Source of the DNA: Eledone cirrhosa
Taxonomy: Eukaryota
Reading direction: 5' to 3'
Assembly (NCBI GenBank): GCA_964016885.1
Contig: OZ024748.1
Span: forward strand, 54,870,001 to 54,934,000
DNA length: 64,000 nucleotides
Below, one piece after another: positions 16,170-56,905 of the stretch. The translations under genes were made by a program, and so were the position numbers. Numbering within the stretch: position 1 is the stretch's first letter; every line of letters begins with the position of its first letter. Under the pieces are notes generated by a model. It did no database searches. It saw only the letters and a list, made by a program, of their open reading frames with translations, and had not been told where the DNA came from.

Positions 16170-16349
16170 ACAAAGAAGGTTTTTTGAAGATACTAGGTTA
16201 ACCATAACCCACTAGAATACTCAATACTTAGGGTAGTAGAGTGGGTAATAGGAAAAGAGTCAGAACCCCGACGGCTGAGCTCCGACCGTTTCGATGTAGC
16301 TGTCGAAACAGCCGGAGCTCAGCCGTCGGGGTCCTGACTCTTTTCTTAT
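16170..16349 (-). mobile_element. Fold-back element family P1: 78-nt unique tail plus 47-bp-arm palindrome; probable truncated Penelope-like pLTR insertion
   Basis: Arms 16248-16294 and 16303-16349 with 4 mismatches; flanked by (TA)n; homologous to 56668-56905; carries GAAACGGTC..GCCGTC (hammerhead 3' half). Confidence 0.75.
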
Positions 16350-16361
16350 ATACATATATAT

Positions 16362-16522
16362 ACGGAGACCTTCTGCAGTTTCCGTCTACCAAATTCCACT
16401 CACAATGCGTTGGTCAATCCGAGGCTATAGTAGAAGACACTTCCAAAGTGCCGCACAACAGAACTGAACACAGAACAATATGGTTGCGAATCTAACTTCT
16501 TAACCACACAGCTATACTTGCG
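16362..16522 (-). mobile_element. tRNA-derived SINE family B (CORE-like body)
   Basis: Minus strand: GTGTGGTTAAGAAG.. GTTCAGTTC.. GTGTCTTCTACTATAGCCTCGG.. GAGTGGAATTTGGTAGACGGAAACTG. Related copies at 23430, 24105 and 54385. Confidence 0.7.
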
Positions 16523-17551
16523 TCTCTCTCTCTCTCTCTCTCTCTCTCTCTCTCTCTCTCTCTCTCTATATATATATATATATATATATATATATATATA
16601 TATATATATATAATGTCCGCACCTCTCCACTACGTCGCTCATCAACGTTTTCTCCTTTGCTATTTCTCATACATTCCCCTTCCCACACATTCTCTCCCTT
16701 CTTTATTCTCTCTCAGCATTTTTTTATGTGATTCATTCAAATATTTTATCGGCTACCTTTCTGTCAATCAATCTCTCTCTATTTCTCTCTCTCCCTCACT
16801 ATTTACTCTTAACCTTTCTCAATGTGTCTTTTCTCTCTCTTTCTCCCTCTCTCTAGCTTTCTTTCGTTTTTCTTTCTCTCGCCATTTCTCCTCTTTCTTT
16901 ACGCTTCACGTTTCTCTAACCTTTCTCTCTCTCACTCTCTTGCAGTCTCTCTCTCTCTTGCAGTCTCTCCCTCTCTCTCAATATTCCCTTAACCAAACTC
17001 CATCCCTCTCCCTATCTATATCTGTTTCTACGCTGTCCACTCTCAATTGGCTCTCCCCAACTCTAATCTCCACTTCCCTTTTCGCTTCCTTTATTTCTTT
17101 GCTTTCTTCCCTTCCACCCACCACCTTTTCCGTTGCTTCTGTTTTGCCTCTGGCCTTAGTTCCATTCCAGCCCTGTCTCCAGGGCATCCATTTACTCTTT
17201 CTCTATTTCATTAAGAGTCATCGCAGTCCTACCCAAACCCTTACATTACACCACCACCATTTTAGCTCCCTTTCCACCATCTCAGACATAGCTGACCCTA
17301 GTTAAGACAAAAGAAAATACAAAAAAAAACAAACAAAAATAAAAGCTAAAAAAAAACGGATAAATAAATATAAAATACGAAAGAAAAAAAATCATAGAAT
17401 TCCTATTTTCAGTCCAATCAGCCTCCCTACCATTCCTCAAGCCCACATTCTCACCACCACACCCAGCCAACCAACACCACTTACCTCCATTACAACGACC
17501 ACTACACCCACCATTATCATTCCCACTATCATCGACCTAGCAAATTCTCCA

Positions 17552-17715
17552 CCGCGGCTAGAGGGAACCTCTATGTGATCACTTGACCTGGTAGTAATAG
17601 TAGCCAAATTTCCCTCAAATCAAGGAAGGAAAGGAACATATATTAGAATGTGTTTGAATGTATTCGATCATAGGTCTGCAGGATCATGGTTGACCTAGGG
17701 ATAAAAAACAAACAA
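17552..17715 (+). mobile_element. Repeat family C copy
   Basis: GAGGGAACCTCTATGTGATCACTTGACCTG..AGCCAAATTTCCCTCAAAT..GATCATAGGTCTG..GACCTAGGG. Confidence 0.6.
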
Positions 17716-17759
17716 TCTAACTAAAACACCGCCATCACAATCACTATCAACAATATTGC

Positions 17760-18800
17760 ACGTTGCCACAATTACCACCATCATGACCTCTGCAACTGCT
17801 ATAACTACTACTACTTCTACTAGTACTACTACTACTACTACTACTACTACTACTGTTGTTGCCACCACCATCACATGCATCACCACCACCATCATCACCA
17901 CCACCACTACCACCAACATCACCAGCTCCACCGTCACCACTACCGTCTCCACCATCACCACCACTACTACTACCATCACCACCACAACCACCATCATCCC
18001 CACTACTACCATCACTAATACCACCACCACCACCACGACCATCACCACCACCACCACCACTACCACCACCACTACCATCACTACCACAACCACCATCACC
18101 ACCACCACCACCACCACTACTACCATTACCACCACAACCACCATTACCACCACCACCACCAATAGCACCGCCACAACCACCACTACCATCACCACCACCA
18201 CCACCACAACAACAACAAACACAGTCAGGATCACCAGAGCTAGGAAGGAGAACAAATATCCCCACTACTCCCCAACTCCTTCACCTCCACCACTGACATC
18301 GCTAATACCTCCACCACCAACACTATCATAACTACCATCGCCACAACTACCACCAGAACCACCACCAACACCTCGACGATGAACACAGCCACCATCATCG
18401 CCATCAATAGAAACACCAACACAGCCATCCACTACTAACAGAACCACCAACACAAGCACCAACAACATCAACCACCACCAACATCAACCACCACAACCAC
18501 CAACAACAGCAACCACCACCAACAACATCAACTACCAACACCACCACCACCATCAACCACCAACACCATCAACCACCACCACCACCCACCACCACCACCA
18601 ACAACATCATCAACTACCAACACCACCACCACCACTACCATCAACCACCAACACCATCAACCACCACCACCAACAACAACAACATCAACCACCAACACCA
18701 CCACCACCATCAACCATCAACACCACCACGACCACAACAACACCACCACAAATACCAATATCATCAACAGAACCACCAAATAACCGCCACCACCACCAAT
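17760..18800. repeat. Degenerate (ACC/ACT/AAC)n trinucleotide tract
   Basis: Low complexity; Thr/Pro/Val ORFs in several frames. Confidence 0.85.
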
Positions 18801-55423: not shown

Positions 55424-55644
55424 AATTATTTCTACTATATGCACAAGGCCAGCAATTTGGGGAGAGGGGGAAAGTCGATTAAATCAACCCTAGTACATTA
55501 CTGGTACTTTATTTTATCGACCCCGTAAGGATGAAAGGCAAAGCTAACCTCGGGGGAATTTGAGCTCAGAACGTAAAGAACCGTAACTATATACCACGAA
55601 GCATGTTGTCCGACGCTCCACCGATACTGACAACCCACCACCCT
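55424..55644 (-). mobile_element. SINE family A, long subfamily
   Basis: Full length; TSD core ACCAAGAAAT at 55417-55426 and 55652-55661. Confidence 0.88.
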
Positions 55645-55689
55645 TATGGGAACCAAGAAATAGAAGGAAGACACAATCTAATCTGGCCG

Positions 55690-55950
55690 AGTTTACACTC
55701 GCAAATAAGAAGAACCAGGGTCACCCCTAGGAGCCTTTGATTTGGTGTACTTTATACTTCTTTCGGTTGCTGAATACAATCAGGGGACGTTGCTTCTCCT
55801 GAATGTCAATAGTTCTCTTCTAACTCGAGCGTGAGTGCCTTTCCATTGTCAATTTGCATTGATCAACTGCAAAGCCGCATTGATCTCAGAACCACTACAC
55901 CAGTCTTTCGATGTGTGCAACTGGAACTACTGTCACCCATTGATTTGGCA
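55690..55950 (-). pseudogene. Possible highly decayed LINE reverse-transcriptase fragment (I/Ingi-like)
   Basis: Minus strand with frameshifts: INAALQLI..QWK..ELLTF..PNQRLLGVTL, resembling the RT C-terminal pattern 'AL..WK..N..K..F..P.LLGVTLD'. Confidence 0.3.
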
Positions 55951-56347
55951 GGATTTTATTTTATTTTATTTTATTTTTTCTTAGATGGCATTTGACTCTT
56001 ATGAGTTCTTTCGCCTTTTTGTCAGGTTTTGTTTTTTGTCCTGCAGGGTGTCTAAAATCACCCTCCTCAGCAAGTAAACTTGACACAAACCTACAAACAA
56101 CGACACAAGCACAAATACAACAGAAAGTCAAGACAACAAACAAATAGACAAAGAGCGATGTACAAAGGACCTGTTTCACCCATCACTATGGAGCTTGATC
56201 CGCTTTTGATCATATCAATGAATCTATATACTGCACAATAACACAGTGCTTATATATATATATGTAAAAGGTAAACAGAAATAACACAATCGGTACAGTA
56301 TATGGAAGGAATATATTAGGTTAAAGTTTGAACTAGCAGGAAGAAGG

Positions 56348-56383
56348 TCTTAATGTTTCGGACGCTAGTCCTTCATCAGAAGA
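56348..56383 (-). ncRNA. Minimal type I hammerhead ribozyme (PLE-type) within a ~210-bp island between (TA)n tracts
   Basis: TCTT-CTGATGA-A-GGAC-TAGC-GTCC-GAAAC-ATT-AAGA. Stem III is ACAT where palindromic ACGT is expected (one substitution). Confidence 0.7.
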
Positions 56384-56667
56384 AAGAATGAGAAATAGGA
56401 TTGATTAAAGGGGCGGGCGGGGTAGAATTGGAAAAAATGTCTTTAGATAAAAATAACAGGTCCATTCATGTTGATATCTCATATATATATATATATACAA
56501 CGCTAGCATGGGTTGGACGGTTTTGTCCCACTTGAGGCGAGATTGGTTGGGAGACCGTGTCTCGCTCGTACAGAATTGTCTCTAGCAGGTTTCCTACGGC
56601 TGGATGTATAAACACAAACTTGTATAGTATAATATATATATATATATATATATATATATAGAGAGAT

Positions 56668-56905
56668 ATAGGAAAATGTATGACCCCAACGGCAGATGTC
56701 AAGCCATTTCGACGGCCATTTCTGGACTAAATTAGAATTTTTAGCATGGCTAAAAATTTTAATTTAGTCCAGAAAAAGCCGTCGAAACGACTAGAGCTCT
56801 GCCGTCGGCATCATACATTTTCCTATTACACACTCTACTAACCTAAGTATTGAGTACTCTGGTGCGTTATGGTCCATATGGTTCCTTACCACACCTCCTT
56901 CGTTT
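56668..56905 (+). mobile_element. Fold-back element family P1, second copy: 78-bp-arm palindrome plus 79-nt tail
   Basis: Arms 56668-56745 and 56749-56826; the tail is homologous to the reverse complement of 16170-16247; flanked by (TA)n. Confidence 0.78.

Follow-up and report, generated by a model that had tools for sequence, protein, structure and literature searches.

Penelope-like elements (PLEs), whose endonuclease-bearing (EN+) members encode a telomerase-like reverse transcriptase and a GIY-YIG endonuclease, insert in a recognizable form. Their copies are described as strongly 5'-truncated, with an adjacent inverted and likewise 5'-truncated copy and with (TA)n targets, and their tail of 30-40 bp is often found at one end only (PMC8557442). 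A curation guide gives the same insertion signature (PMC8969392). In Penelope elements the tail sits on one of the inverted repeats, and palindromic junctions have been read as self-priming (PMC3846280). Work in vitro with a purified PLE has shown both strands of AT-rich DNA to be cut and extended, with reverse transcription beginning at two neighbouring sites, one on either side of the tail; the protein is predicted to form a dimer (PMC11167929). The origin of the tandem and inverted structures and of the one-sided tail has been described as unresolved, and the Naiad elements of cephalopods as long-inactive remnants (PMC8557442). We have analyzed here two copies, P1a and P1b, of a short fold-back repeat (P1) found in a 64,000-nt stretch of the Eledone cirrhosa genome (the window; contig OZ024748.1, positions 54,870,001 to 54,934,000), in whose own numbering all positions are given below. 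P1, whose class had escaped the first-pass annotation of this DNA, works like a PLE insertion and is probably one; its membership in the Hydra clade is not proven. With moderate confidence, P1a and P1b can be regarded as two old, heavily 5'-truncated PLE insertions, most like the (TA)n-targeting Hydra clade, formed by folding back. The PLE insertion architecture and the two mechanisms that may account for it are already in print, and the P1 family is unnamed in the open-access literature searched.

Both copies are genuine hairpin-plus-tail repeats of 180-238 nt without coding sequence, and the tails of 78-79 nt and palindromes of differing arm length that had been reported for them were confirmed, as was the rest of their anatomy. 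In P1a, a tail of 78 nt with (TA)n at its end (16170-16247, minus strand) forms the 3' extension of the tailed arm and contains a bulged hairpin (16216-16241, minus strand) made of ACTC, a 4-bp stem-loop, a TT bulge and GAGT. The tailed arm (49 nt; 16248-16296, minus strand) has GAAAC at 16288-16292, together with a 5-bp stem and GTC, and is joined through a turn with a 4-nt loop (TAGC/GCTA; 16297-16300) to the tail-less inverted arm (16301-16349, plus strand), which ends in TTTTCTTAT and adjoins (TA)n. P1b lies in the opposite orientation. Its tail-less inverted arm (78 nt; 56668-56745, minus strand) ends in TTTTCCTAT and adjoins a short TC repeat and (TA)n; its turn (56746-56748) has a 3-nt loop, ATG/CAT, which also supplies the first bases of a 6-bp stem that closes just 5' of CGAAAC; and its tailed arm (78 nt; 56749-56826, plus strand) carries GAAAC at 56784-56788, then the stem and GTC, with no CTGANGA. 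The tail of P1b (79 nt; 56827-56905, plus strand) also has (TA)n at its end, and its bulged hairpin (56833-56858, plus strand) starts, as in P1a, 6 nt beyond the boundary between arm and tail. Arm lengths of 47 and 78 bp had been proposed initially; the second holds, and the first stops before a CpG-decayed pair and becomes 49 when that pair is included.

The hairpins scored 120 bits (P1a) and 175 bits (P1b), whereas the unmasked window, shuffled 20 times with its dinucleotides preserved, gave at best 28-39 bits. The two arms match at 43 of 49 positions in P1a, where all six mismatches are transitions, and at 67 of 78 in P1b, where five of the 11 mismatches are transversions. Several adjacent double substitutions are seen among the mismatches of P1b (56668-56826), unlike the all-transition pattern of P1a. 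A fold-back artefact of the assembly was ruled out, as the arms are 86-88% identical rather than perfect and the same end is found in both copies. The tail-less arms do share one outer end: both finish at the homologous TTTTCYTAT, and since microsatellite sequence follows in the two copies, (TA)n in P1a and 9 nt of TC-rich repeat and then (TA)n in P1b, the position is fixed to about 3 nt and not provably to the base. Any target-site duplication is masked by the (TA)n flanks. P1a lies within the AT-rich tail of one copy of a family resembling short interspersed elements (SINEs). We regard both copies as decaying repeats with no sign of host function.

P1a and P1b are homologous over tail and arm (blastn E=1e-21; 96 of 129 columns identical, 74%), and their conservation peaks in the tail hairpin (35/40), followed by the arm (36/49) and the distal tail (25/40). 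When the four arms were aligned over 49 columns, 26 columns were invariant, eight separated the copies, none separated the arms, none was crossed, 14 were singletons (one of them due to a one-base coordinate offset) and one was of another kind. The earlier observation that both arms of each copy differ together therefore stands, with five of the eight columns coming from a single block (GAGTCAG/TGTATGA, including a 2-nt gap). The conclusion drawn from it, that each palindrome was made at insertion, is supported as to formation at insertion; the covariation of the arms is no proof of it, because the copies are 26% apart, and columns that split by copy would be expected equally from separate palindromic masters or from homogenisation of the arms after insertion (PMC8604942). 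The turn precedes GAAAC by 8 nt in P1a and by 38 nt in P1b, and both times it falls on the hairpin immediately 5' of that motif. The loop of this hairpin has 25 nt in P1b and, in one possible reading, 4 nt in P1a, so the difference in arm length may reflect a hairpin that differs between subfamilies. The window holds no third copy of P1, and searches of bacterial and archaeal genomes gave 0 matches, with none in the plasmids and phages searched either.

The anatomy of P1, an inverted 5'-truncated copy joined head to head, a tail on one end only and (TA)n, is that of the published insertion form of PLEs. The polarity of the head-to-head copies was deduced by comparing GAAAC and the tail hairpin with Hydra consensi. 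Tail ends and tail-less ends of both copies all abut (TA)n or TC/(TA)n, as judged from the flanks, in agreement with insertion of Hydra-clade elements into (TA)n. Neither copy shows a direct pseudo-long terminal repeat (pLTR) or partial tandem, a feature that varies among published PLE copies (PMC8557442). The available part of a retrozyme preprint (10.64898/2026.07.22.740005) holds nothing on inverted copies.

A second line of evidence comes from the tail hairpin. It is also present in Q27, a more distant element of the window described below, and all eight of its pairs are kept in the three elements; one pair has changed in a compensatory way and another to a wobble pair. When six Hydra-clade consensi were inspected by eye, the pattern was found within 70 nt of an end in three (Hydra-2_Amil, Hydra-2_Ajap and Hydra-1_Ajap), with an outer G-C pair in place of A-T; of the other three, one has a variant of the hairpin and two are without it. 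In 300 shuffles of 27.7 kb, the pattern turned up on average 0.013 times per shuffle under a strict definition and 0.38 times under a relaxed one. A covariance model of the hairpin run on the window recovered only its three training copies, the next match (E=0.035) lying in a microsatellite. Spacing in P1 also resembles that of the Hydra consensi: GAAAC lies 42 and 40 nt from the TAT boundary in P1, and in five of the six consensi (hand counts) the GAAAC of the hammerhead is 35-53 nt before TATA. Three of the six extend 54-71 nt beyond TATA, again by hand count, and these extensions, close in length to the 78-79-nt tails of P1, probably correspond to tails.

The sequence around GAAAC is reminiscent of a hammerhead ribozyme. 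The stem after GAAA (5 bp, with a 9-nt loop and then GTC) keeps 18 of 20 pairs across the four P1 arms, and in P1a the combination of GAAAC, 5-bp stem and GTC resembles what a type I hammerhead has in its 3' half. If CTGANGA was part of the parent element, it would lie beyond the P1 turn. The tailed side of P1b begins on the 6-bp stem that closes just before CGAAAC, for which the chance is about 0.001, for a position picked post hoc. The stretch CTAAAAAT in P1b was considered as a decayed hammerhead core and rejected, there being no stem II after it. Further evidence is that an intact-looking minimal hammerhead fragment of Penelope type (CTGATGA, 4-bp stem II, GAAAC) lies at 56262-56480 on the minus strand, with (TA)n on both sides and no inverted copy; its spacing, 44 nt to TATAT and then 48 nt to (TA)n, is the same as in P1. 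A decayed relative of this fragment is seen at about 1444-1500 (minus strand). In the supplement of PMC8557442, inspected by eye, GTCGAAA closes a hairpin in or near the 3' non-coding end at about eight of the 13 places listed for Naiad and Chlamys consensi, and it is possibly an RNA element shared by PLEs that are said to be without hammerheads. No description of the tail hairpin or of turns clustering at stem II was found in the open-access literature, subscription papers, Repbase and Dfam lying outside that search.

Several observations weigh against the identification or the proposed formation of P1. A strict tail-hairpin match is missing in three of the six Hydra consensi, including the Octopus one, and the hairpin descriptor was written after the ends of P1, Q27 and Hydra had been seen, so that the shuffle rate is a background and not a blind test. 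The sole match in a Naiad consensus (Naiad_Mmer) was discarded as probably due to chance, because it is not terminal, some 430 nt separating it from the end. The P1 tails fold no better than shuffles (z of -0.4 and -0.7, sense orientation), and P1 and Q27 show no significant similarity when simply aligned locally, the scores being reached by 185 and 32 of 1000 shuffles. CTGANGA was found in none of the tailed arms of the five elements, nor in P1b within the 38 nt that precede GAAAC, and Rfam gave no ribozyme match in either P1 tailed arm, a search that also missed an intact-looking hammerhead at 56355-56379. No match to the Pfam models of reverse transcriptase or GIY-YIG was obtained among the longest 150 of the 189 open reading frames (ORFs) of the window, where the single weak match was to an unrelated domain (FYRN, E=0.008), and no parent of P1 was found among the consensi of Craig 2021 using exact P1 motifs. 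The copies themselves are too short for such an ORF and, being without coding sequence, offer no place for the protein motifs of the Hydra clade (RWK, DKT, CxCX5C, no CCHH). Published PLE tails, at 30-40 bp, are half as long as those of P1 (PMC8557442). With regard to the mechanism, the 4-nt loop of P1a can be assigned equally well to the tail-less arm, which would not fit a snap-back that begins at the tail, and the self-priming argued for in PMC3846280 takes place on an antisense template and is not in itself a snap-back of cDNA.

The plan of P1 is not exclusive to it. When the masked window was scanned, five long palindromes emerged, all with a one-sided tail (56-103 nt) and a loop of 1-13 nt, and four of them in or beside (TA)n. 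The exception is Q27 (27046-27232), flanked by AAC-rich and GA-rich repeats, a distant relative of P1 with the same plan: a tail of at least 56 nt bearing the same bulged hairpin, arms of 59 bp and a loop of 13 nt that contains GAAAC on the tailed arm, the turn lying 7 nt before it. GAAAC and the palindrome ACAATTGT at this turn resemble a minimal hammerhead stem III. An isolated tail-less end of the Q27 family, Q45 (45618-45646, plus strand), stops at about the same boundary; within 45546-45646 only the last 26-29 nt are common with Q27, the GC-rich upstream part being different. The remaining two palindromes are unrelated in sequence: R53a (53430-53616), with arms of about 41 bp, a loop of about 1 nt and a 103-nt tail in (TA)n, and R53b (53634-54060), with arms of about 175 bp, a 7-nt loop and a 68-nt tail in (TA)n. 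They are arranged tail to tail across one short (TA)n and are younger than P1, as their arms are 94-96% identical. In the R53b tail, CTC pairs with GAG near the boundary, and CGAACACATGT is found 54 nt before the boundary. A wider scan, allowing spacings of up to 5 kb, added two short hairpins and inverted pairs of the dispersed SINE-like repeat, but no tailed pair in which the loop was long. Since five elements share it, the plan belongs to several repeat families of this genome and not to P1 alone.

We propose that P1 was formed as follows. The endonuclease of the element would nick a (TA)n tract, as the flanks and the class of the element suggest. Reverse transcription would then start at the far end of the tail and copy the tail and the 3' end, as seen in vitro for another PLE, and would halt in the hairpin that immediately precedes GAAAC, where a hammerhead has its stem II; the position of the halt is visible in the copies and its cause is presumed. 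The tiny loops suggest that the cDNA would at this point fold back and be copied towards the tail. This second copy would end at the internal TAT just before the tail hairpin, through a cut or a block by a bound protein, and its TA end might finally join the other side of the (TA)n target. The outcome would be a head-to-head palindrome with a tail on one side. The scheme of the first-pass annotation was partly supported. Its start of reverse transcription at the tail end was supported, and its snap-back of the cDNA, already proposed as self-priming for Penelope junctions (PMC3846280), is favoured because the loops are tiny (1-13 nt) in all five elements, and GAAAC in the Q27 loop, on the tailed arm, is what a snap-back beginning at the tail predicts. 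Priming from two ends could also account for the palindromes. The fixed stop about 78 nt short of the end was not shown, as the fixed end may instead be a second priming site, comparable to the two PLE starts (PMC11167929), nor was a variable turn point, both turns being on one hairpin 5' of GAAAC and two copies being too few to decide.

A bolder and rather doubtful extension of this proposal is that folding back is programmed by the RNA structure of the element, with reverse transcription halting at the 5' base of hammerhead stem II, the hairpin cDNA serving as snap-back primer and a clade-wide tail hairpin marking the tail and fixing the tail-less end. Arm length would then depend on how long stem II is in each subfamily, and the stop would not be random. 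The turns of P1a, P1b and Q27, which all have the tail hairpin, are 8, 38 and 7 nt before GAAAC. If this were the case, the ribozyme fold would be a structural switch turning insertions into short hairpin DNAs, and the tail hairpin would be a conserved feature that P1 has in common with Hydra-clade elements from coral and sea cucumber.

The main rival keeps the identity as a PLE and assumes priming from two ends: both target strands would be nicked and each would prime its own cDNA, one at the far and one at the near end of the tail, so that the fixed boundary is the second start, and the cDNAs would be joined head to head at a short natural palindrome. We consider this unlikely on balance. 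The purified PLE does cut and extend both strands, its two adjacent starts do bound the tail, and it is a predicted dimer (PMC11167929). The P1a loop is ambiguous, being either part of the tailed arm, as a tetraloop closed by a natural stem of 4 bp, which would mean a clean snap-back, or four extra bases on the tail-less arm, which would mean two separately primed cDNAs; it matches the sequence expected on the tail-less arm. In P1b the centre can be read as a 3-nt loop or as the palindrome CCATGG short of one base, and the clustered double changes of this copy (11 mismatches, five of them transversions) are such as two templates might leave. However, independent cDNAs should often differ widely in length, whereas loops are 1-13 nt in five of five elements and no long-looped pair with a tail was seen within 5 kb, although trimming after annealing at a palindrome could hide such pairs. 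Inheritance of the palindrome, either from a short non-autonomous tailed palindromic master in each subfamily or through homogenisation of the arms after insertion, is clearly less probable than two-ended priming. It would fit the 74% identity of the copies, which implies different masters, the presence of both turns on one hairpin, and the ability of template switching to homogenise inverted arms (PMC8604942), but the plan is common to four unrelated or distant families in one window, the tail-less end of Q45 stands alone without a palindrome, and arms 12-14% apart within each P1 copy imply that homogenisation is not ongoing.

Three further explanations are still less credible. In non-autonomous Helentrons of the HINE/DINE-1 type, as in P1, only one of the two repeats is terminal, and the stretch that separates the second from the far end contains a hairpin. 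Their repeats, however, are of 12-15 bp and lie 38-60 bp from the 3' end, their hairpin is 8-35 bp from that end and their targets are TT (PMC4067079), whereas P1 has arms of 49-78 bp with no interior and loops of 3-4 nt, not subterminal repeats, and its hairpin ends about 50 nt from the end between (TA)n flanks, unlike the stem-loop and target of these elements; such an origin is very improbable. Equally hard to credit is the insertion of a single PLE end of which the host later made an inverted copy by replication template switching, a process known to build hairpins in genomes, as this would leave unaccounted for both the outer end shared by two loci that are 40 kb apart and the plan shared by five elements. 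The least probable of all is an ordinary miniature inverted-repeat transposable element (MITE) or foldback DNA transposon with captured flank. P1 is short, palindromic and non-coding and has TA flanks, but its true ends match in inverted orientation at 9 of 20 and 6 of 20 bases, so that they bear no terminal inverted repeats, the two tails are homologous and have changed less than the arms, and the loops differ. An ordinary MITE is already refuted by the criterion that the first-pass annotation had set, unless most copies in the genome are tail-less and have one loop in common.

The surroundings are microsatellite-rich eukaryotic DNA. The SINE-like family (about 200 nt, at least two subfamilies) is abundant, with copies at 15957-16157 and more than a dozen other sites (for example 23746-23936, 25677-25862, 28310-28500, 39000-39301, 52972-53161 and 55424-55646). 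Presumably it is akin to octopus SINEs; a motif search of papers gave no confirmation. Just upstream of the copy beside P1a, at 15832-15910 (plus strand), the hammerhead-like halves CTGACGAG and CGAAACGCGCGTC are about 58 nt apart. An isolated segment at 25204-25368 has an 11-nt stretch in common with the P1b tail hairpin and short motifs in common with the R53b tail; it is possibly another PLE end and gave no match to the covariance model of the tail hairpin. Broken frames at 30690-31090 (plus strand), without a Pfam match, are what we take, by eye, to be the C-terminal part of a long interspersed element of RTE type. A short imperfect inverted pair around about 115 nt (22288-22464) is a possible true MITE. 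Multi-kb, strand-skewed tandem arrays of short units, with long stop-free frames, occupy 9113-13550, 46100-50300 and 58000-60800. The window has no tRNA genes, and among the matches listed by Rfam (150 of 194) there were only sub-threshold hairpins of microRNA (miRNA) type.

Short and abundant hairpin-plus-tail copies are of interest since each records both ends and the turn of a single insertion event, and those of P1 could help to test how the fold-back form of PLEs arises. With five such copies in 64 kb, the whole genome should suffice to separate snap-back from two-ended priming by counting. The tail hairpin may be a signal at which the reverse transcriptase binds or starts, and it offers a handle for classifying repeats that pipelines would otherwise label as MITEs or miRNA-like hairpins.

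Among the systems described, the HINE/DINE-1 Helentrons share with P1 an asymmetric inverted repeat and a 3' stem-loop, and differ in the length of the repeat, in where the hairpin lies, in their TT target and in having an interior (PMC4067079). The Penelope/Poseidon elements are closer. Both Pen2a of Adineta vaga (PMC3846280) and PAc of Anolis (PMC11167929) resemble P1 in having a head-to-head inverted copy shorter than the tailed one and a palindromic junction; a one-sided tail and an AT-rich target are also shared, and in Penelope/Poseidon self-priming has been proposed and two reverse transcription starts bound the tail. Unlike P1, with its tail of 78-79 nt, they have a tail of 30-40 bp that overlaps the ORF start, and usually direct pLTRs. 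Naiad elements (PMC8557442) share with P1 a (TA)n preference, an inverted truncated copy, a tail and the lack of a canonical hammerhead, and GTCGAAA near the 3' end of several of their consensi, two Octopus ones included, is suggestive only as a lead for P1; the Naiad ends examined have no tail hairpin, unlike P1. The closest likeness is to Hydra-clade PLEs. These have an intact hammerhead with a short stem III, unlike P1, where only GAAAC, the 5-bp stem with its 9-nt loop and GTC are found, without CTGANGA, and P1 has neither an ORF nor extended sequence identity to the Hydra consensi compared. Hydra-2_Amil, Hydra-2_Ajap, Hydra-1_Obim and other members have, like P1, (TA)n targets (PMC8557442), and the clade further shares with it a GAAAC 35-53 nt before an internal TATA, an extension of 54-71 nt in three of six consensi, a bulged hairpin near the end in three of six and, in one member listed in Repbase, a 5'-truncated inverted copy.

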